Of a stretch of 64,000 bases of DNA, positions 1-63,619 are shown in pieces. Position 1 is the first letter of the stretch. Every line of letters starts with the position of its first letter. Source of the stretch: a virus (lineage: Duplodnaviria > Heunggongvirae > Uroviricota > Caudoviricetes); IMG/VR virus record IMGVR_UViG_2880412407_000002, one strand, 5' to 3'. Below the pieces are notes generated by a model, which worked only from the letters and a program-made list of their open reading frames with translations, did no database searches and had not been told where the DNA came from. Made by a program: the position numbers and the translations under genes.

Positions 1-717
1 GCCGGTACCACTCTGTGGGTTTACAACGGCAAGGGTGATGCTTATGCAAACCCGTTGTCAGACGATGACTGGCAGCGACTGGCTAAGGTGAAGGATCTGA
101 CGCCGGGCGAGATGACGGCAGAACCCTACGATGATAACTACCTGGATGATGAAGACGCGGACTGGACCGCGACCGGGCAGGGGCAGAAGTCTGCAGGAGA
201 TACCAGTTTTACGCTGGCCTGGAAACCGGGAGAAGAAGGTCAGAAAGGGCTTATAGGCTGGTTTGAAAGCGGGGATGTGCGGGCCTATAAAATCCGTTTC
301 CCAAATGGCACGGTGGATGTGTTCCGTGGCTGGGTCAGCAGTATCGGTAAGGCCGTGACGGCGAAAGAAGTGATCACCCGCACGGTGAAAGTGACCAACG
401 TGGGCAAACCTTCTGTAGCGGAAGAACGCAGCAAAATTACGCCGGTCACTGCGATTAAGGTGACGCCGACATCCGGTACGGTGGCAAAAGGGAAAACAAC
501 CACCCTGACGGTTTCTTTTGAGCCGGAAAGTGCAACCGACAAGACGTTCAGAGCGGTTTCCGCCGATCCGTCGAAAGCCACCATTAGTGTGAAAGATATG
601 ACAATTACGGTAAACGGCGTGGCGACAGGTAAGGTGCAGATCCCTGTGGTGAGCGGAAATGGTCAGTTCGCCGCAGTGGCTGAAGTCACCGTTACTGAAG
701 CGGGCGCTGCAGGGTAA
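1..717 (+). CDS. V: Major tail protein V, 5'-truncated by window edge
   Basis: Near-identical to the complete copy at 49549..50301; Ig-like C-terminal region; lambda gene order. Confidence 0.9.
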
Positions 718-730
718 ACGGAGGTCATAC

Positions 731-1153
731 ATGTTTCTGAAAACAGAACAATTTGAATATAACGGTGTGTCCGTCACGCTTTCCGAATTGTCTGCGCTGC
801 AGCGGTTTGATTATATAAAGTTTGTTTCAGACGCAGAACAACAGGAGACAACGAAGCATGATGTCGTGCACATTAACCAGCGATATCTGGAAACGGCATC
901 CCTGCTTGTGGCGATGTCGCTATGGCATTCCCATTCCCTCAAAGGCACTCTGGCCTCTCCGGAGACAGAGATGCAGCAGATCCGCCGTGAAGTGATGCTG
1001 GGATGGCCTGCTGATGCACTGAATCAGGCAACGAACCGGGTGCTTTATCTTTCAGGTATGCTGGATAACCGGCACGATGCCGATCCTGAACCAACCGGGA
1101 AAACAGAAGCGACTGAGCCGGTAACATCAAAAAAGCATTCGAAGGCGAGCTGA
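731..1153 (+). CDS. G: Tail assembly chaperone G
   Basis: MFLKTEQFEYNGVSVTLSELSALQR start; position between V and H. Confidence 0.85.
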   Translation: MFLKTEQFEYNGVSVTLSELSALQRFDYIKFVSDAEQQETTKHDVVHINQRYLETASLLVAMSLWHSHSLKGTLASPETEMQQIRREVMLGWPADALNQATNRVLYLSGMLDNRHDADPEPTGKTEATEPVTSKKHSKAS

Positions 1154-1488
1154 ACTTTGTCCTGAAACTGGCGCGTGAGATGGGGAGAGCCGACTGGCGC
1201 GCCATGCTTGCCGGGATGACATCCACCGAATATGCCGACTGGCGACGTTTTTACTGCACGCATTATTTTCAGGATACCCAGCTGGATATGCATTTTTCCG
1301 GGCTGACGTACGCCGTACTCAGCCTGTTTTTTTGCGATCCGGATATGCATCCGGCGGATTTCAGCCTGTTCGCTCCGGAGGCAGAGGAAGGGCAGGCGGA
1401 GACGCCGGACGAAAATGATGTACTGATGCAGAAGGCGGCGGGCCTCGCCGGTGGAGTCCGTTTCGGGGAGGAGGGAAGGAGGTTGTGA
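731..1488 (+). CDS. T: Tail assembly protein G-T, made by programmed -1 frameshift
   Basis: T frame (1180..1488) is -1 relative to G and overlaps the G 3' end; slippery A_AAA_AAG in the G zero frame. Confidence 0.7.
1129..1135 (+). promoter_or_regulatory. Putative -1 ribosomal slippery heptamer A_AAA_AAG for G-T
   Basis: Codons AAA (1130-1132) and AAG (1133-1135) are in the G frame, just before the G stop. Confidence 0.6.
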
Positions 1489-1531: not shown

Positions 1532-4176
1532 ATGGCAGGTAATTTTGCCGATCTGACAGCCGTGCTGACACTGGATTCTGCCCGTTTTTCTGAAGAGGCA
1601 GCGCGGGTAAAAAAAGAGCTGGGTGAAACCAGTGCGCTTGCTGATTTGATGTCCGGGAAAGTCAGTCAGTCTTTCAGAAAACAGGCTGATGCTGCTGAGC
1701 AGAGTCTGAGCCGACAGGCGCTGGCTGCACAAAAAGCCGGGATATCAGTCGGACAGTATAAGGCTGCCATGCGCACACTGCCCGCACAGTTCACGGATAT
1801 TGTCACTCAGCTTGCCGGTGGTCAGAATCCCTTCCTTATCATGCTGCAGCAGGGGGGGCAGATCAGCGATTCATTCGGTGGACCGCTCAGCCTGCTTACC
1901 CTGCTGAAGGAGGAACTTCTCGGGATCAGGGATGCCTCTGAATCATCAGAGGAGTCGCTGTCAGATACGGCAAATGCACTGGCTGAAAATGCCCGGAATG
2001 CCGGTGAGCTGGGACGATTTATGTCGGTGGCCCGTGTGGCGGCAGGTGGCGGGGTTGCCGTACTGGCCGCGCTTGCTGCCGCCGCCTGGCAGGCAGAGCA
2101 GGCTGACCGGGCCTTATTGCGTTCACTGACCCTGACCGGAGGGGCTGCTGCCACCACAACGGCAGAATTGTGGAAAATGGCCGGGGTGATCAGCGATGAA
2201 GCCGGTGGTGGTATCAGACAGGCGGCAGAAAATCTGGCCCGTCTGGCAGAAAGCGGGAAATATACCGCCGGGCAGCTACGGATCATGGGGGAAACCTCTC
2301 AGAGATGGCTGCAGACGGTGGGGGACGATGCCGGGAAGGTGGAAAAAGCCTTTGAAGGGATTGCAGCAGATCCGGTGAAGGCGCTGGCCTCCCTGAATCA
2401 GCAGTATAACTTCCTGAGCGTTTCCCAGTTACGCCATATTGATGAGCTTGAGCGCACGAAAGGTAAACAGGCTGCGGTGACGGAGGCGATGTCCCTGTTT
2501 GCGGATGTCATGAATGCACGTCTGGAGCAACTTGATAAAGCGGCCACGCCGGTGGAAAAAATCTGGGACGATGTTAAAACCTGGACTTCTGACGCATGGG
2601 CATGGATAGGTGATCATACACTGGGGGCACTCAGTCTGATCACTGACGTGGTGGCCGGAACCGTTGAACAAGTGAAGCTGCTGCTTGTGCAGGGGATCTG
2701 GCGCTGGCTGAATTTATTCAGTCAGCCTGGGAAACGACAAAGAATGTGCCCGGCGTTGGTGCGTTGTTTGGTGAACTGGCAGAAGAGAACCGCGTATTTA
2801 TTGAGAAAACAAAACGCGATGAACTGGCGCTGAGAAAATCCATTGCGGAACGGGATGCGCGTATACGCCAGGGGGAAATGGGGTACATCAACCGCTCGCG
2901 TGCAACAGGCGTCAGCAAAGGTCCTGGGCAGCAGGAAGCCGTCAGCCGTCTGGCTGAAGAGCTGACAGGTAAAAAGCATACATCACCGAAAACGCGCTCT
3001 GCCGGGGAGAGGGAAGAGGAGCAGGCAAGAGAGGCTCTGCTTGCCCTTGAAGCTGAGCTCAGGACGCTGGAAAAACACAGCGGTGCGAATGAGAAAATCA
3101 GTCGGCAGCGCCGTGATTTATGGAAGGCGGAAAGTCAGTATGCGGTCCTGAAAGAGGCTGCCACGAAACGGCAGTTATCCTGGCAGGAAAAATCCCTGCT
3201 GGCCCATGAGAAAGAGACGCTGGAGTACAAACGCCAGCTGGCTGACCTGGGCGACAAGGTTGAACACCAGAAACGCCTGAATGAGCTGGCACAGCAGGCG
3301 GTGCGGTTTGAAGAGCAGCAGAGCGCGAAGCAGGCCGCCATCAGCGCAAAAGCCCGCGGTCTCACTGACCGTCAGGCGCAGCGGGAGTCTGAAGCGCAGC
3401 GTCTTCGGGACGTGTACGGTGATAATCCGCAGGCGCTGGCCCGGGTCACCGGGGCACTGAAACAGACATGGGCGGATGAAGACATGCTGCGCGGTGACTG
3501 GCTGGCCGGGCTGAAGTCCGGCTGGGGGGAGTGGGCGGAAAGTGCGACGGACAGTTTTTCGCAGGTTAAAAGTGCTGCCACGCAGACCTTTGACGGTATT
3601 GCACAGAATATGGCGGCGATGCTGACCGGTGCAGAGGCAGACTGGCGGGGATTCACCCGTTCGGTGCTGTCCATGATGACAGAAATCCTGCTTAAACAGG
3701 CCATGGTGGGCATTGTCGGGCGTATCGGCAGCGCCATTGGCGGTGCTTTCGGTGGTGGTGCATCTGCTTCCTCGGGGACGGCCATTGAGGCTGCGGCGGC
3801 GAACTTCCATTTCGCGACCGGAGGATTTACGGGGACGGGCGGCAAATATGAGCCTGCGGGGATAGTTCACCGCGGGGAGTTTGTTTTCACGAAAGAGGCA
3901 ACCAGCCGGATAGGTGTGGGGAATCTTTACCGTCTGATGCGCGGCTATGCGGAAGGTGGTTATGTGGGTGGTGCCGGAAGTCCGGCGCAGATGCGGCGGG
4001 CGGAAGGTATTAATTTTAATCAGAACAATCACGTGGTGATTCAGAACGACGGTATCAACGGACAGGCGGGGCCGCAGCTGATGAAGGCGGTGTATGACAT
4101 GGCCCGCAAGGGGGCGCAGGATGAGCTCCGGCTGCAGTTGCGTGATGGCGGTATGTTATCAGGGAGCGGGCGATGA
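1532..4176 (+). pseudogene. H: Tail tape measure protein H, reading frame broken near 2692-2695 (G run)
   Basis: Two overlapping ORFs (1523..2833, 2746..4176); C-terminal half matches lambda H; possible sequencing artefact. Confidence 0.8.
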
Positions 4177-10323: not shown

Positions 10324-10922
10324 ATGCGTAAACTTTATGCCGCCATTTTGTCCGCAGCCATCTGTCTGGCCGTATCCGGCGCGCCTGCATGGGCGTCTGA
10401 GCAGCAGGCCACGCTGAGCGCGGGGTATCTTCATGCCCGGACGAGCGCTCCCGGCAGCGATGATCTTAACGGGATTAACGTGAAATACCGTTATGAGTTT
10501 ACGGACACACTGGGGATGGTGACGTCGTTCAGCTATGCAGGAGACAAGAATCGCCAGATTACCCGTTACAGCGATACCCGCTGGCATGAAGATTCCGTTC
10601 GTAACCGCTGGTTCAGCGTAATGGCGGGGCCGTCTGTGCGCGTGAATGAATGGTTCAGCGCGTATGCGATGGCGGGTGTGGCTTACAGCCGTGTGTCGAC
10701 TTTCTCCGGGATTATCTTCGCGTAACTGACAACAAGGGGAAAACGCACGATGTGCTGACCGGAAGTGATGACGGTCGCCACAGCAACACGTCTCTGGCGT
10801 GGGGAGCTGGCGTGCAGTTTAACCCGACCGAATCCGTGGCCATTGATATTGCTTATGAAGGTTCTGGCAGTGGTGACTGGCGCACTGACGGGTTCATCGT
10901 GGGTGTTGGTTATAAATTCTGA
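10324..10922 (+). pseudogene. lom: Outer membrane protein Lom, frame broken near 10708-10710
   Basis: Two ORFs (10324..10725, 10650..10922) together match the intact 199-aa copy at 59696..60295; GGG here versus GGGG there. Confidence 0.8.
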
Positions 10923-33337: not shown

Positions 33338-33413
33338 GGCCCTTTAGCTCAGTGGTGAGAGCGAGCGACTCATAATCGCCAGGTCGCTGGTTCAAATCCA
33401 GCAAGGGCCACCA
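33338..33413 (+). tRNA. ileZ: tRNA with CAU anticodon (ileZ-like tRNA-Ile2 or tRNA-Met)
   Basis: 76 nt cloverleaf folded by hand; anticodon loop cuCAUaa; CCA end. Confidence 0.85.
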
Positions 33414-33420
33414 TCACATA

Positions 33421-33497
33421 CCGCCATTAGCTCATCAGGAAAGAGCGCCAGCCTTCGAAGCTGGCTGCGCGGGGTTCAAGTCCCCGATGGCGGTCCA
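33421..33497 (+). tRNA. argN: tRNA-Arg (anticodon UCG)
   Basis: 77 nt; anticodon loop cuUCGaa; 7-bp acceptor stem; CCA end. Confidence 0.8.
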
Positions 33498-33510
33498 TTA
33501 TCTGCATCAT

Positions 33511-33587
33511 GCGTTGTTAGCTCAGCCGGACAGAGCAATTGCCTTCTAAGCAATCGGTCAGTGGTTCGACTCCACTACAACGCGCCA
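33511..33587 (+). tRNA. argO: tRNA-Arg (anticodon UCU)
   Basis: 77 nt; anticodon loop cuUCUaa; 7-bp acceptor stem; CCA end. Confidence 0.85.
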
Positions 33588-33756
33588 CACTTATTTTCCA
33601 GGCTCGCTTCGGCGGGCCTTTTTTGTATCTGCGCCACGCCCGGCGCATATCAACCACAGAGCCTTTCGGGGGTGAGCTTACGGAGTGGTCAGTGTGACTT
33701 TCTCTGTGGGCAGATCGCTCCCGGGCGTTGGCTCACCCACCCAAAGGAACGTCACG

Positions 33757-49548: not shown

Positions 49549-50301
49549 ATGCCAACACCAAATCCCCTGGCGCCGGTAAAAGGTGCCGGTACCACTCTGT
49601 GGGTTTACACCGGCAAGGGTGATGCTTATGCAAACCCGTTGTCAGATGATGACTGGCAGCGACTGGCTAAGGTGAAGGATCTGACGCCGGGCGAGATGAC
49701 GGCAGAATCCTACGATGATAACTACCTGGATGATGAAGACGCGGACTGGAGCGCGACCGGGCAGGGACAGAAATCTGCAGGTGATACCAGTTTTACACTG
49801 GCCTGGAAACCGGGAGAAGAAGGTCAGAAAGGGCTTATAGGCTGGTTTGAAAGCGGGGATGTGCGGGCCTATAAAATCCGTTTTCCGAATGGCACGGTGG
49901 ATGTGTTTCGTGGCTGGATCAGCAGTATCGGTAAGGCAGTGACGGCGAAAGAAGTGATCACCCGAACAGTGAAAGTGACCAACGTGGGCAAACCTTCCGT
50001 GGCGGAAGAACGCAGCGAAATTACGCCGGCCACTGCAATTAAGGTGACACCGACATCCGGTACCGTGGAAAAAGGAAAAACAACCACCCTGACTGTTTCT
50101 TTTGAGCCGGAAAGTGCAACCGACAAGACGTTCAGAGCGGTTTCCGCCGATCCGTCAACGGGAACCATTGCTGTGAAAGATATGGTGATCACTGTGACGG
50201 GGGTTAAGGCTGGAAAAGTGAGTATCCCCGTGATTTCCGGTAATGGTCAGTTTGCCACGGTAGCTGAAGTCACCGTTACTGAAGCGGGCGCTGCAGGGTA
50301 A
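49549..50301 (+). CDS. V: Major tail protein V
   Basis: 250 aa; Ig-like C-terminus. Confidence 0.95.
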
Positions 50302-50314
50302 ACGGAGGTCATAC

Positions 50315-50746
50315 ATGTTTCTGAAAACAGAACAATTTGAATATAACGGTGTGTCTGTCACGCTTTCCGAATTGTCTGCGCTGCAGCGTATTGAGCATCT
50401 TGCCCTCCTGAAACGGCGTGCAGAACAGGCAGAATCCAGCGGCAACCTGCAGGTAAGCGTGGAAGATCTCGTCAGAACCGGCGCGTTTCTGGTGGCGATG
50501 TCCCTGTGGCATAACCATCCGCAGAAAACGGGGTCACCGTCAATGAATGAGGCCGTGATGCAGATTGAGCAGGAAGTCCTGACCACCTGGCCTGCTGATG
50601 CCATTGCCCGGGCGGAAGATGTGGTGTTGCGTCTGTCCGGGATGAGCGGGCCTGTTCATGTGGATACGGATATTACCGAAGTGGCGAAAAATAACGCGCT
50701 GACTGATGATGATTTTTCTGCGGGAAAGTCTTCGACGGCGAGCTGA
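50315..50746 (+). CDS. G: Tail assembly chaperone G
   Basis: 143 aa. Confidence 0.85.
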   Translation: MFLKTEQFEYNGVSVTLSELSALQRIEHLALLKRRAEQAESSGNLQVSVEDLVRTGAFLVAMSLWHNHPQKTGSPSMNEAVMQIEQEVLTTWPADAIARAEDVVLRLSGMSGPVHVDTDITEVAKNNALTDDDFSAGKSSTAS

Positions 50747-51186
50747 ATTTTGCCCTCAGACTGGCGCGTGAGATGGGGAGGCCTGACTGGCGCGCCATGC
50801 TTGCCGGGATGACATCCACCGAATATGCCGACTGGCGACATTTTTACCGCACGCATTATTTTCACGATACCCAACTGGATATGCATTTTTCCGGGCTGAC
50901 GTACGCTGTACTCAGCCTGTTTTTTTGCGATCCGGATATGCATCCCTCTGATTTCAGTCTGCTTGTCCCCCGGCATGAGGAAGAGCAGGTGGAGAGGCCG
51001 GATGAGGACAAAATGCTGATGCAGAAAGCGGCAGGACTTGCCGGAGGCGTCCGGTTCGGTGGGGACGGAGGGCGCGATATTTTATCGTCTGCGGATGTGG
51101 CGGATGTCATGGTGGATGATGCCGCATTAATGATGGCTTCAGCGGGGATTTCCGGAGGTGTGAGATATGTCCCAGCCGGTTGGTGA
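50315..51186 (+). CDS. T: Tail assembly protein G-T via -1 frameshift
   Basis: T frame 50773..51186 is -1 relative to G; slippery G_GGA_AAG in the G frame. Confidence 0.75.
50722..50728 (+). promoter_or_regulatory. Slippery heptamer G_GGA_AAG for G-T (lambda-type)
   Basis: Codons GGA (50723-50725) and AAG (50726-50728) in the G frame. Confidence 0.7.
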
Positions 51187-53745
51187 TCTTGTTATTGACC
51201 TTAGTCTGGATGCGGTCCGTTTCGATGAGCAGATGAGCCGGGTAAGGCGTCATTTTTCAGGTCTGGATACCGACGCCAGAAAAACCGCCAGTGCTGTTGA
51301 ACAGGGCCTGAGCCGCCAGGCGCTGGCTGCACAAAAAGCCGGGATTTCCGTCGGGCAGTATAAAGCGGCCATGCGAACCCTGCCCGCACAGTTTACGGAT
51401 ATCGCCACGCAGCTTGCCGGTGGTCAGAATCCCTGGCTGATCCTGCTGCAACAGGGCGGTCAGGTGAAGGACTCCTTCGGCGGGATGATCCCCATGTTCA
51501 GGGGGCTTGCCGGTGCGATCACCCTGCCGATGGTCGGGGTCACCTCGCTGGCGGTGGCGACAGGTGCGCTGGCGTACGCCTGGTACCAGGGGGATTCCAC
51601 GCTTTCAGCGTTTAATAAAACCCTGGTTCTTTCCGGTAATCAGTCCGGACTGACTGCCGATCGCATGCTGACGCTCTCCAGAGCCGGACAGGCCGCAGGG
51701 CTGACGTTTAACCAGGCGAGTGAGTCACTGGCAGCCCTGGTGAATGCCGGTGTGCGTGGTGGTGAACAGTTTGATGCCATCAACCAGAGTGTCGCGCGTT
51801 TTGCTTCTGCATCCGGTGTGGAGGTGGACAAGGTTGCAGAGGCTTTCGGAAAACTGACCACCGACCCTACGTCGGGGCTGATTGCGATGGCGCGCCAGTT
51901 CCGTAACGTGACGGCAGAGCAGATTGCGTATGTTGCGCAGCTGCAGCGTTCCGGTGATGAGGCCGGGGCCTTACAGGCGGCGAACGATATCGCCACGAAA
52001 GGCTTTGATGAGCAGACCCGTCGCCTGAAAGAAAACATGGGGACACTGGAGACCTGGGCGGATAAAACCGGGAAGGCATTCAAATCGATGTGGGATGCCA
52101 TTCTGGATATCGGTCGTCCTGAGTCCTCAGCGGATATGCTCGCCAGTGCACAGAAGGCATTTGATGAGGCGGATAAAAATGGCAGTGGTACCAGAGCCGG
52201 AGCCAGCGCCGGGGAAAAACCGCCTCTTTTCGTGCGAACCTTCAGGGTGCATGGAATGACCGGGAAAATGCCCGTCTGGGGCTGGCAGCGGCCACGCTGC
52301 AGTCGGATATGGAAAAAGCCGGTGAACTGGCCGCCAGGGACCGGGCCGAACGGGACGCATCACAGCTGAAGTATACCGGAGAGGCGCAGAAGGCGTATGA
52401 GCGTCTGCTGACGCCGCTGGAGAAATATACCGCCCGTCAGGAAGAACTGAATAAGGCCCTGAAAGACGGGAAAATCCTGCAGGCGGATTACAACACGCTG
52501 ATGGCGGCGGCGAAAAAGGATTATGAATCGACGCTGAAAAAGCCGAAGTCGTCAGGAGTCAAAGTGTCAGCCGGTGAGCGTCAGGAAGACCAGGCGCATG
52601 CTGCCCTGCTGGCGCTTGAAACCGAGCTCCGGACGCTGGAAAAACACAGCGGTGCGAATGAGAAAATCAGCCAGCAGCGTCGCGATTTATGGAAAGCGGA
52701 AAATCAGTATGCGGTCCTGAAAGAGGCAGCCACGAAACGGCAGTTATCTGAGCAGGAAAAATCCCTGCTGACCCATGAGAAAGAGACGCTGGAGTACAAA
52801 CGCCAGCTGGCTGAGCTGGGAGACAAAGTTGAACACCAGAAACGGCTGAATGAGCTGGCACAGCAGGCTGCGCGGTTTGAGCAGCAGCAGGGCGCGAAGC
52901 AGGCGGCAATCAGTGCCCAGGCGCGGGGCCTCACCGACCGTCAGGCGCAGCGGGAGTCGGAAGAGCAGCGCCTTCGTGACGTGTACGGTGATAATCCGGA
53001 TGCGCTGGCGAAGGCCACATCGGCACTGAAGAACACCTGGTCTGCGGAGGAGCAGCTTCGTGGAAGCTGGATGGCCGGTCTGAAGTCCGGCTGGGGCGAG
53101 TGGGCAGAAAGTGCGACGGACAGTTTTTCGCAGGTTAAAAGCGTGGCCACGCAGACCTTTGACGGTATTGCACAGAATATGGCAGCGATGCTGACCGGCA
53201 GCGAACAGAACTGGCGTGGTTTCACCCGTTCTGTGCTCTCCATGCTGACAGAGATTTTTCTGAAGCAGGCGATGGTGGGGATAGTCGGGAGTATCGGCAG
53301 CGCCATTGGCGGTGCTTTCGGTGGTGGTGCGTCTGCCTCCACGGGGACGGCCATTCAGGCTGCGGCGGCGAACTTCCATTTCGCGACCGGGGGATTTACG
53401 GGGACGGGGGGTAAATATGAACCTGCGGGAATTGTTCATCGCGGGGAGTTTGTCTTCACGAAGGAAGCAACCAGCCGGATTGGCGTCGGCAACCTGTACC
53501 GCCTGATGCGGGGCTATGCGGAAGGTGGTTATGTGGGCGGTGCCGGAAGTTCGGCGCAGATGCGGCGGACGGAAGGCATTAATTTTAATCAGAACAATCA
53601 CGTGGTGATTCAGAACGACGGCACCAACGGACAGGCGGGGCCGCAGCTGATGAAGGCGGTGTATGACATGGCCCGCAAGGGGGCGCAGGATGAGATTCAG
53701 GCGCAGATGCGTGATGGCGGCGTCTTTTCCGGAGGCAGGCGATGA
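51167..53745 (+). pseudogene. H: Tail tape measure protein H, frame broken in A5 run (52175-52179)
   Basis: ORFs 51167..52369 and 52309..53745; adding one A restores a continuous frame (DK-KWQWYQSRSQ). Confidence 0.85.
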
Positions 53746-56147: not shown

Positions 56148-59100
56148 ATGGGTAAAGGCAGCAGTAAGGGGCATACCCCGCGCGAAGCGAAGGACAACCT
56201 GAAGTCCACGCAGCTGCTGAGTGTGATCGATGCTATCAGCGAAGGGCCGGTTGAAGGTCCGGTGGATGGATTAAAAAGCGTGCTGCTGAACAGTACGCCG
56301 GTGCTGGACAGTGAGGGGAATACCAATATATCCGGCGTCACGGTGGTGTTCCGGGCCGGTGAGCAGGAGCAGACACCGCCGGAGGGATTTGAATCCTCCG
56401 GCTCCGAGACGGTGCTCGGTACAGAAGTGAAATATGACACGCCGATCACCAGGACCATCACGTCGGCAAACATTGACCGTCTGCGTTTTACTTTCGGCGT
56501 GCAGGCACTGGTGGAAACCACCTCAAAGGGGGACAGGAATCCATCGGAAGTCCGCCTGCTGGTTCAGATACAACGTAACGGTGGCTGGGTGACGGAAAAA
56601 GACATCACCATTAAGGGTAAAACCACTTCACAGTATCTGGCCTCGGTGGTGGTGGATAACCTGCCGCCGCGCCCGTTCAGTATCCGGATGCGCAGGATGA
56701 CGCCGGACAGCACCACAGACCAGCTGCAGAACAAAACGCTCTGGTCGTCATACACCGAAATCATCGATGTGAAACAGTGCTACCCGAACACGGCACTGGT
56801 CGGCGTGCAGGTGGACTCGGAGCAGTTCGGCAGCCAGCAGGTGAGCCGTAATTATCATCTGCGCGGGCGCATTCTGCAGGTGCCGTCGAACTATAACCCG
56901 CAGACGCGACAATACAGCGGTATCTGGGACGGAACGTTAAAACCGGCATACAGCAACAACATGGCCTGGTGTCTGTGGGATATGCTGACCCACCCGCGCT
57001 ACGGCATGGGGAAACGTCTTGGTGCGGCAGATGTGGATAAATGGGCGCTGTATGTCATCGGCCAGTACTGCGACCAGTCAGTGCCGGACGGTTTTGGCGG
57101 CACGGAGCCGCGCATCACCTGTAATGCGTACCTGACCACACAGCGTAAGGCGTGGGATGTGCTCAGTGATTTCTGCTCGGCGATGCGCTGTATGCCGGTA
57201 TGGAACGGGCAGACGCTGACGTTCGTGCAGGACCGGCCGTCGGATAAGGTGTGGACCTATAACCGCAGTAATGTGGTGATGCCGGATGATGGCGCGCCGT
57301 TCCGCTACAGCTTCAGCGCCCTGAAGGACCGCCATAATGCCGTTGAGGTGAACTGGATTGACCCGGATAACGGCTGGGAGACGGCGACAGAGCTTGTGGA
57401 GGACTCGCAGGCCATTGCCCGTTACGGTCGTAATGTTACGAAGATGGATGCCTTTGGCTGTACCAGCCGGGGGCAGGCACACCGCGCCGGGCTGTGGCTG
57501 ATTAAAACGGAGCTGCTGGAGACGCAGACCGTGGATTTCAGCGTCGGCGCAGAAGGGCTTCGCCATGTACCGGGCGATGTTATTGAAATCTGCGATGATG
57601 ACTATGCCGGTATCAGCACCGGTGGTCGTGTGCTGGCGGTGAACAGCCAGACCCGGACGCTGACGCTCGACCGTGAAATCACGCTGCCATCCTCCGGTAC
57701 CACGCTGATAAGCCTGGTTGACGGAAGTGGCAATCCGGTCAGCGTGGAGGTCCAGTCCGTCACCGACGGCGTGAAGGTAAAAGTGAGCCGTGTTCCTGGC
57801 GGCGTTGCCGGATACAGCGTATGGGGGCTGAAGCTGCCGACGCTGCGCCAGCGCCTGTTCCGCTGCGTGAGTATCCGTGAGAACGACGACGGCACGTATG
57901 CCATCACCGCCGTGCAGCATGTACCGGAAAAAGAAGCCATCGTGGATAACGGGGCGCACTTTGACGGCGACCAGAGCGGCACGGTTGAATGGTGTCACGC
58001 CGCCAGCAGTGCAGCACCTGACTGCCGAAGTCACCGCAGACAGCGGGGAATACCAGGTGCTGGCGCGCTGGGACACGCCGAAGGTGGTGAAGGGCGTGAG
58101 CTTCCTGCTTCGCCTGACCGTGGCAGCGGACGACGGCAGTGAGCGGCTGGTCAGCACGGCCAGGACGACGGAAACCACATACCGCTTCAGGCAACTGGCG
58201 CTGGGGCGTTACACGCTGACGGTCCGGGCGGTAAATGCGTGGGGACAGCAGGGCGATCCGGCATCGGTATCGTTCCGGATTGCCGCACCGGCAGCGCCGT
58301 CGCGGATTGAGCTGACGCCGGGCTATTTTCAGATAACTGCCACGCCGCATCTTGCGGTTTATGATCCGACGGTACAGTTTGAGTTCTGGTTCTCGGAAAC
58401 GCGGATTACCGATATCAGGCAGGTTGAAACCACAGCCCGCTATCTTGGCACGGCGCTGTACTGGATAGCCGCCAGTATCAATATCAAACCGGGCCATGAT
58501 TATTATTTTTACATCCGCAGTGTGAACACCGTTGGCAAATCGGCATTCGTGGAGGCTGTTGGCCAGCCGAGTGATGATGCATCCGGCTATCTGGATTTTT
58601 TCAAAGGCGAGATAGGGAAAACCCATCTGGCTCAGGAGCTGTGGACGCAGATTGATAACGGTCAGCTTGCGCCTGACCTGGCTGAAATCAGGACGTCCAT
58701 TACGGATGTCAGCAATGAAATCACGCAGACCGTCAATAAGAAACTGGAAGACCAGAGTGCAGCGATCCAGCAGATACAGAAGGTTCAGGTTGATACAAAT
58801 AATAACCTGAACAGCATGTGGGCTGTGAAGCTGCAGCAGATGCAGGACGGACGCCTTTATATCGCGGGTATTGGTGCCGGTATTGAGAATGCTCCTGACG
58901 GAATGCAGAGTCAGGTGCTGCTGGCGGCGGACAGGATTGCGATGATTAATCCTGCGAATGGCAACACAAAGCCGATGTTTGTTGGGCAGGGCGATCAGAT
59001 ATTCATGAACGAAGTGTTCCTGAAATATCTGACGGCTCCCACCATTACCAGCGGCGGTAATCCTCCGGCATTTTCCCTGACACCGGACGGGCGGCTGACG

Positions 59101-62837: not shown

Positions 62838-63419
62838 ATGCCATTAACCTCAGATATTAATTCATCTTCGTTCCATCTTGGAATGGAGGTTCTTCGTGCT
62901 CAAGTTGCAGCCACTGGGCGTGGAGAATTTACAATGGGTGGTGAAACTGTCAGAATTGAATATAGTCCAACAGATGGGCGCTTTCTGGCCAGCGATGGCA
63001 CTGGGGGATTATTTACTGAATTATTGCTTTTAGGGTTCAATAATGGGCCTCAAGCTCTTGGCGAGAGAATGTTAAGTATTCTTTCAGGATCAGATGCAGG
63101 TGAAACACAATCGCAAGTGACTCCTCAGGATAAAATATATCAATGTAAGTTTTCTGTTAATACAGAGAGCCTCCAGTGTCCCTCTGATGCAACTCGATGC
63201 CCAATTATACTGGAAACACCAGAAGAAGGGGTATTTGTCAAAAATTCAGATAGTTCAGCAGTATGCACTTTATTTGATGTTGATGCACTTTCTCGCGTGG
63301 TTAATGACGGTTCAGTTCACCCTCTGACACGAGCTCCAATAACCCCATCAATGATTGTTAAACCAGAAGAGTGTAAATATGACCCTGCAAGGGGAAGCTT
63401 TATTATAAAAGATAGTTAA
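62838..63419 (+). CDS. Putative type III effector, NleG-like (U-box-type C-terminus), tentative
   Basis: 193 aa, AT-rich, in the effector locus after tail fibre genes; family assignment from recall only. Confidence 0.45.
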   Translation: MPLTSDINSSSFHLGMEVLRAQVAATGRGEFTMGGETVRIEYSPTDGRFLASDGTGGLFTELLLLGFNNGPQALGERMLSILSGSDAGETQSQVTPQDKIYQCKFSVNTESLQCPSDATRCPIILETPEEGVFVKNSDSSAVCTLFDVDALSRVVNDGSVHPLTRAPITPSMIVKPEECKYDPARGSFIIKDS

Positions 63420-63619
63420 GATGTTTCAAATGAAACAATATTAACTTCCGATAATTTATATAAAAACACCACAGGCATTCGGGGCCTGTGGTTGGTAAAA
63501 CAATATAATACGCGAGTTATTTTTCATGAGCTGGAGAGAAAACAATCAAGGTAAGTGGTATTATTTCACAAAATACCGGGCACTTTCTGGTGCCGCATCG
63601 TTCAGAGCTTCGGTGTATA

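Follow-up and report, generated by a model that had tools for sequence, protein, structure and literature searches.

Different slippery heptamers at the homologous predicted G-T frameshift codon of two tandem lambdoid prophages

The tail genes G and T of phage lambda are reportedly expressed through a -1 programmed ribosomal frameshift that yields G and G-T, which is said to have been described by Levin, Hendrix & Casjens in 1993 and by Xu, Hendrix & Duda in 2004, 2013 and 2014. In lambda the 0 frame is kept by ~96% of ribosomes and the shift takes ~4%; excess GT lowers phage yield and the GT level depends on thiolation of U34 of tRNA-Lys (Maynard et al. 2012, PMC3296357). Tail assembly requires a G:GT ratio of ~30:1 (Atkins et al. 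2016, PMC5009743). When 64 heptamers were measured in one E. coli reporter, V_VVA_AAG emerged as the best class (Sharma et al. 2014, PMC4066793). For tail chaperone genes PRFect gives several motifs that are non-canonical, and heptamer diversity among tail-chaperone shift sites is already established. The haloarchaeal viruses HCTV-1, -2 and -5 infect archaea, and their g-t sites are unrelated in sequence to those described below; two of the three have another last base.

We analysed a single stretch of DNA of 64,000 nt, referred to here as the window, which holds two tandem lambdoid prophages of Shiga-toxin-type E. coli. It is 99.96% identical to positions 2,002,774-2,066,773 of NZ_CP027435.1, an O121:H19-type Shiga-toxin-producing E. 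coli. Strain 2014C-3599 served as the sister strain for comparison, and the PGAP annotation tables were taken from it. We refer to the V-G-T-H modules of the two separate prophages as copy A and copy B. Both have the order V-G-T-H in the PGAP annotation of the sister strain, with the major tail gene V on one side of G and T and the tape measure gene H on the other. The layout of the window is as follows.

1 to ~14,900: tail end of prophage A, with V, G, T, H, M, L, K, I, J, Lom, a tail fibre gene and the effector gene espK
15,201-16,220: integrase at the start of prophage B, followed by early and lysis genes, terminase, head genes and the second tail module
1-717, plus strand: 3' part of V, the major tail protein of prophage A, annotated by PGAP as 'phage tail protein' in the sister strain and homologous to V of copy B
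49549-50301, plus strand: V, the major tail protein of prophage B, from the ORF and PGAP
1532-4176, plus strand: H, the tape measure gene of copy A, an intact 2646-nt CDS in the sister strain
51167-53745, plus strand: H, the tape measure gene of copy B, an intact 2580-nt CDS in the sister strain

Type III effector genes stand at the prophage ends, as is usual for lambdoid prophages of Shiga-toxin-producing E. coli (espK, 13028-14389; nleG, ~62845-63426). Prophage B also carries three tRNA genes, for Ile, Arg and Arg (33343-33592), and tRNA-Lys is absent among them.

In both copies a G gene is followed, in the -1 frame, by a T part. Both G proteins matched PF06894 above the curated Pfam cut-off, and the T domain was found complete in each. 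The features at the two junctions are listed here.

731-1153, plus strand: G, tail assembly chaperone of copy A, 140 aa (PF06894 Phage_TAC_2, lambda gpG, E 1.4e-34; gpG in PGAP)
50315-50746, plus strand: G, tail assembly chaperone of copy B, 143 aa (PF06894, E 5.9e-50; gpG in PGAP)
1129-1135, plus strand: slippery heptamer A_AAA_AAG of copy A, codons tcA AAA AAG (Ser-Lys-Lys)
50722-50728, plus strand: slippery heptamer G_GGA_AAG of copy B, codons gcG GGA AAG (Ala-Gly-Lys), as in lambda
1135-1488, plus strand: T part in the -1 frame of copy A, 117 aa (PF06223 Phage_tail_T, E 1.4e-12, profile positions 1-73 of 73)
50728-51186, plus strand: T part in the -1 frame of copy B, 152 aa (PF06223, E 3.7e-14, full profile matched)

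An earlier note on this DNA, made from the sequence alone, had read the site near the end of G in copy B as the lambda-type G_GGA_AAG and had placed A_AAA_AAG at the corresponding point of copy A. Both readings hold. Lambda has the same heptamer as copy B at this position, and the two heptamers of the window align column for column, each with its end exactly five codons before the G stop. The note was also right that both are in the zero frame for a -1 shift into T. In each copy the first base of the heptamer is a third codon position, which gives the X_XXY_YYZ phase of tandem -1 slippage, and PF06223 lies in the -1 frame. The predicted GT fusions would be 252 aa long in copy A and 290 aa in copy B.

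In copy A the -1 frame first opens at 1117, and in copy B at 50713, which confines a productive shift to overlaps of 34 and 31 nt. Exactly one in-phase XXXYYYZ is present in each. AAAAAAG occurs 19 times and GGGAAAG 10 times on the two strands of the window, close to the shuffled expectation and equal to ~2.3e-4 per position per strand. At this frequency a match in the right phase within ~11 codon positions would be expected in ~0.25% of loci, and both loci have one, at the homologous codon. Two other copies lie within H of copy A, AAAAAAG at 1610 and GGGAAAG at 1655 (offsets 78 and 123 from the ATG at 1532); they were rejected as slip sites because their phase is XXX_YYY_Z, which is not that of slippage. 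The heptamer is followed by C in copy A and by U in copy B. Two peptides of copy A belong to the predicted fusion: the tryptic peptide AFEGELNFVLK, which is encoded in the -1 frame only and upstream of the annotated T start (its copy B counterpart is VFDGELNFALR), and the Glu-C junction peptide ATEPVTSKKAFE.

With lambda both copies share the Pfam families of G and T, the V-G-T-H order and the place of the predicted shift, five codons ahead of the end of G. The heptamer of copy B is identical to that of lambda, and copy A would have the same A-site event, with A_AAG and tRNA-Lys. Copy A differs from lambda in its P-site codon, which is AAA (Lys) rather than GGA (Gly), and in a T that lacks the last ~35 residues. 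In its heptamer copy A resembles dnaX and the IS911/IS3-family sites, which also use A_AAA_AAG and where both slipping tRNAs are the single tRNA-Lys. However, sites of the dnaX and IS3 type owe their tens of percent to a Shine-Dalgarno-like element upstream, a strong hairpin or pseudoknot downstream, or both, whereas copy A has no Shine-Dalgarno-like motif and only a moderate putative structure 8 nt downstream. The shift level of copy A is expected from this comparison to be lambda-like, a few percent at most.

A third type is found in phages of the phi80/LLS/mEp043 type, which have homologous G and T genes, a homologous shift codon and the same A_AAG core. They differ in using the non-canonical G_GAA_AAG, in which the P-site step from GAA to GGA needs a G.U middle pair and which usually has CC on its 3' side. 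The GenBank record PQ299149 of phage LLS holds a joined CDS and the annotation 'minus-one programmed translational frameshift site GGAAAAG', and a full-text search for published mention of G_GAA_AAG as a shift site returned unrelated matches only. An analogue with the copy A heptamer is the pair ECs1801/ECs1802 of Sakai prophage Sp9, a tail chaperone of an E. coli O157 prophage with an in-phase A_AAA_AAG near the stop and a -1 extension; its cluster, 'A_AAA_AAG_25', is listed as a tail assembly chaperone for which a true -1 shift is safely inferred (Sharma et al. 2014, PMC4066793). At the Sp9 site (locus L196, 25002-25681) the heptamer ends directly before the ECs_1801 stop, and the -1 frame runs into the separately annotated ECs_1802. 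We considered whether ECs1801 is the same gene as G of copy A and rejected this: ECs1801 belongs to PF06222 Phage_TAC_1 (E 2.3e-61) and gave no significant BLASTP match to either G, and the G proteins of the window match PF06894 only and not PF06222.

We then compared 82 related loci: 80 prophage-derived IMG/VR loci retrieved by searching with the T part, to which an E. coli chromosome and phage VT1-Sakai were added. A single in-phase heptamer was present at the homologous codon in all 82. It is G_GGA_AAG in all 49 B-type loci, as in lambda itself, and A_AAA_AAG in all 33 A-type loci, although the latter are closely related to one another and their conservation is weak on its own. The heptamer type follows the C-terminal sequence of G without exception in the 82 loci, with ...EPVTSKKHSKAS accompanying A_AAA_AAG and ...FSAGKSSTAS accompanying G_GGA_AAG.

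More distant relatives were collected by a scan of one genome per species and a second IMG/VR scan. These came from Enterobacter, Citrobacter, Pluralibacter and phi80-like phages, with T 55-60% identical. We found G_GAA_AAG at the homologous codon in 12 of 12 genome loci and in 79 of 80 IMG/VR loci; the sole exception among the 92 is L151, with G_GGA_AAA. These loci (L099-L110 and L116-L195) have CC 3' of the heptamer in nearly all cases. In the G_GAA_AAG relatives the preceding Thr codon uses all four third bases, while the first G of the heptamer, itself at a four-fold degenerate position, is invariant. An invariant base amid free synonymous variation is good evidence that selection acts on the site's nucleotide sequence. 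What is invariant across the family is A_AAG, the A-site lysine slip, and the P-site codon varies between GGA, AAA and GAA.

The stretch between the G stop and the annotated ATG of T was also informative. Among 68 distinct sequences the entropies of the -1 frame are 0.05, 0.22 and 0.59 at codon positions 1, 2 and 3. Variation dominated by the third position indicates that this stretch is translated in the T frame, and hence that it is entered from the heptamer. The -1 frame of copy A lacks a start codon from 1117 to 1180. These patterns suggest that T is translated as an extension of G and not from a start of its own.

The A-type G body is common. Among 5,426 complete E. coli genomes, 642 have it at an identity of at least 95%, in as many as five copies each, and the A-type allele is 99.8% identical to that of phage VT1-Sakai. 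Mitomycin C induction yielded ASU11, an A-type phage whose T is the short form. Lambda sequence was also met in assemblies labelled Neobacillus, Pseudomonas, Kitasatospora, Shewanella, Enterococcus and others (L085-L098, L111-L113); the contigs are often of low coverage and ~48.4 kb long, and they are almost certainly contamination with lambda control or ladder DNA.

The earlier note had concluded that the recoding signal was swapped while the shift was preserved. The heptamers do differ at the homologous codon, as it said, but the difference can be narrowed to the P-site half (A_AA versus G_GG) and arrived together with the G body. The A_AAG core is common to both copies, and to the phi80-type G_GAA_AAG as well. 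Copy A and copy B are 97% identical in the initial 75 nt of G; identity is 46% in the G body as far as heptamer base 3 and 91% from AAAG through the conserved part of T. Thus the three differing bases of the heptamer end the diverged G-body module, and the four shared bases begin the conserved module.

Other loci combine these modules differently. The A-type G body occurs with the short T and an HA-like H start in at least 10 loci, and with the long T and an HB-like H start in 18 loci. Locus L032 (1483-1601) is a natural recombinant in which a B-type G body with GGGAAAG is joined to an A-like T start (TTCGAAGGCGAGCTGAACTTTGTCCTGAAA), which puts a crossover only a few bases from the slip site. 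Together, the occurrence of A-type G with both forms of T and H and the junction in L032 indicate that the heptamer moves as part of the G body and that its recombination is independent of T and H. This supports the view that the heptamer change came with a whole diverged G-body module by recombination and not by local mutation of the signal. We also considered that the type of G might be tied to the type of H N-terminus, as in chaperone-substrate co-variation, and rejected this because A-type G is found with both H types.

Published measurements allow the two heptamers to be compared directly. In the E. coli reporter of Sharma et al. 2014 (PMC4066793, Table S3), AAAAAAG gave a -1 shift of 0.291% with no stimulator, 4.255% with the IS911 stimulator and 39.0% with the IS3 pseudoknot, and GGGAAAG gave 0.277%, 3.801% and 43.0%, all within one artificial context. 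Both heptamers of the window belong to the V_VVA_AAG class. The simplest reading of this equal efficiency is that exchange of one for the other is close to neutral. The 3' context can alter shift efficiency several-fold (PMC4066793; PMC5009743), C is more shift-prone than U after A_AAA_AAG (Atkins et al. 2016, PMC5009743), and CC is given in the literature as the most shift-prone 3' context for this heptamer. We consider that the swap is probably near-neutral, and a modest difference could come from the 3' neighbour, C in copy A and U in copy B.

We looked for stimulatory elements on both sides of the heptamer. No Shine-Dalgarno-like motif was present 6-17 nt upstream in either copy; positions 1109-1128 of copy A read gcgactgagccggtaacatc, with no GGAG, GAGG or AGGA. 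For the gpG cluster no Shine-Dalgarno motif is listed (Table S8) and no excess structural stability was reported (Sharma et al. 2014, PMC4066793). Downstream, a putative stem-loop was found at the same place in both copies.

1144-1212, plus strand: putative downstream stem-loop of copy A, with an outer stem (1144-1150 with 1206-1212) and an inner GC stem (1169-1178 with 1195-1204)
50737-50805, plus strand: the same putative stem-loop in copy B, from the folding score (z = -2.1) and the alignment

It would begin 8 nt after the heptamer and consist of an outer 6-bp stem and an inner GC-rich stem, with a folding z of ~-2.1 in both copies. In the alignment of 68 distinct sequences 99% of the cells are paired; only one double change was seen, from A-U to G-C, which corresponds to a single clade split, and the stems lie over invariant LAREMGRPDWRAM codons. 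All three heptamer classes share the putative stem-loop.

T of copy A ends ~35 residues before T of copy B or lambda. It keeps the first motif, 'AAGLAGGVRFG', lacks the second, 'GGVRY', and is followed by a 43-nt non-coding gap and then H. PGAP labels it a pseudogene, 'incomplete, missing C-terminus'. The short T nevertheless has a complete Pfam T domain, T of the phi80 type is no longer than it, and VT1-Sakai and ASU11 carry this form as well; it accompanies the HA-like H start. G and T are listed as separate CDS in the VT1-Sakai, CP-1639, ASU11 and Stx2 phage records. We found no slippage mark for the A-type allele of lambda-family G in published papers or public records, and the accessible literature yielded neither protein nor reporter data showing that the A-type site shifts. 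On the evidence set out above, -1 slippage at A_AAA_AAG probably makes a normal G-T fusion.

The window assembly contains errors in homopolymer runs. H is split into two overlapping ORFs in both copies, by a 1-nt homopolymer deletion near ~2691 in copy A (G5 to G4 relative to the sister strain) and near ~52174 in copy B (A6 to A5). The split genes are most likely a long-read assembly error and not pseudogenes or a second frameshift; the reading as biology, with a second frameshift pair in H, was rejected since the single-base homopolymer deletions are absent from the sister strain. Seven further single-base length differences from the sister strain were seen at 10707 (in Lom), 11753 and 11779 (in the tail fibre gene), 29866, 35170 and 46709 (in early and head genes) and 57985. 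In six of these the window lacks one base of a short homopolymer run, and at 57985 it has an extra T; the seven probably create further false frameshifts in the assembly. Despite such errors elsewhere, both slippery heptamers are identical to those of the sister strain, and the A6 run of the copy A heptamer is also found in VT1-Sakai and in 33 of 33 A-type loci.

Our preferred explanation, which as a whole we hold to be highly probable, is that both copies make a G-T fusion by lambda-type -1 slippage and that the heptamers are interchangeable through module exchange. T would have no translation start of its own in either copy. A few percent of the ribosomes on G would slip back one base at the heptamer and produce the G-T fusion beside the far more abundant G. 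The A-site event would be common to both, with the single E. coli tRNA-Lys moving from AAG to AAA. The P-site would differ, with tRNA-Lys moving from AAA to AAA in copy A and tRNA-Gly from GGA to GGG in copy B. A similar G:GT ratio would be expected in both copies because both heptamers are in the top efficiency class, V_VVA_AAG. The difference between them would exist because the heptamer lies at the 3' edge of a variable G-body module that is exchanged independently of T and H. The sequences, their phase, uniqueness and conservation, the coding signal of the -1 frame and the modular exchange are results of this analysis, the lambda mechanism and the heptamer efficiencies come from published work, and we infer that copy A shifts, at a lambda-like rate. 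Several points count against this explanation: the A-type loci are close relatives of one another, the reporter comparison comes from a single artificial context, the native 3' neighbours differ, and, if T of copy A were defective, as the PGAP label has it, selection on the shift could be relaxed, although its Pfam domain is complete and T of the phi80 type is as short.

That label also bears on a different account, in which AAAAAAG in copy A is incidental and T is either a decaying pseudogene or starts itself at the ATG at 1180, with no programmed shift. Beside the annotation 'incomplete; missing C-terminus', the separate G and T CDS in the GenBank entries of VT1-Sakai, CP-1639 and ASU11 agree with it, but separate annotation is normal also for lambda-type copies with a proven shift. 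It is hard to reconcile with the protein-level constraint in the -1 frame upstream of ATG 1180, with the complete Pfam T domain of copy A, or with the lack of any Shine-Dalgarno-like motif beyond GAG before 1180. The heptamer is unique in the overlap and stands at the exact lambda position, and the allele is kept at an identity of at least 95% in 642 genomes and in an inducible phage. We regard this account as very unlikely. We consider it extremely unlikely that slippage of RNA polymerase along the A6 run is the main source of the copy A fusion. An extra A would give the same fusion, since an A7 mRNA is predicted from the sequence to encode the same Ser-Lys-Lys-Ala-Phe junction and GT protein, and copy B, with A3 only, could not use such a route. 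Efficient slippage by bacterial RNA polymerase is, however, documented for runs of 9 A or T, and six is short (Atkins et al. 2016, PMC5009743); ribosomal shifting at A_AAA_AAG is proven for dnaX and IS elements (PMC4066793; PMC5009743), and the homologous G_GGA_AAG and G_GAA_AAG sites have no long run yet occupy the same codon.

A further alternative accepts the shift in both copies and holds that the heptamer change is functional, giving a different G:GT ratio or a different dependence on tRNA-Lys modification, so that tail assembly is tuned differently. On A_AAA_AAG the P- and A-site tRNAs would both be the mnm5s2U-modified tRNA-Lys, and thiolation alters the lambda GT level (PMC3296357). 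The 3' neighbours also differ, C versus U, with 3' C the more shift-prone for A_AAA_AAG (PMC5009743), and T of copy A is 35 aa shorter. Against this, the two heptamers were <15% apart at three stimulator strengths in identical reporter contexts (PMC4066793), and A-type G occurs with either form of T and either type of H, which speaks against a co-adapted set. We think such tuning unlikely. A related and more specific proposal, that the G:GT ratio and tail yield of A-type prophages are more sensitive to host sulfur supply or tRNA modification and, jointly, that the downstream stem-loop is an unrecognised stimulator that sets the few-percent level, seems to us quite unlikely. If true, the sensitivity would concern A-type (VT1-Sakai-like) prophages in ~12% of E. 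coli genomes.

The preferred explanation, lambda-type slippage at both heptamers, carries little mechanistic weight, being another conserved tail-chaperone frameshift at a slip site whose function in E. coli was established before. Its value for annotation is greater, as public records including RefSeq/PGAP split G and T of a widespread prophage type and PGAP flags T as a pseudogene. The case also shows the slip site as a recombination boundary between a variable G body and a conserved T domain, and prophages of one genome can thus have interchangeable, equally efficient signals.
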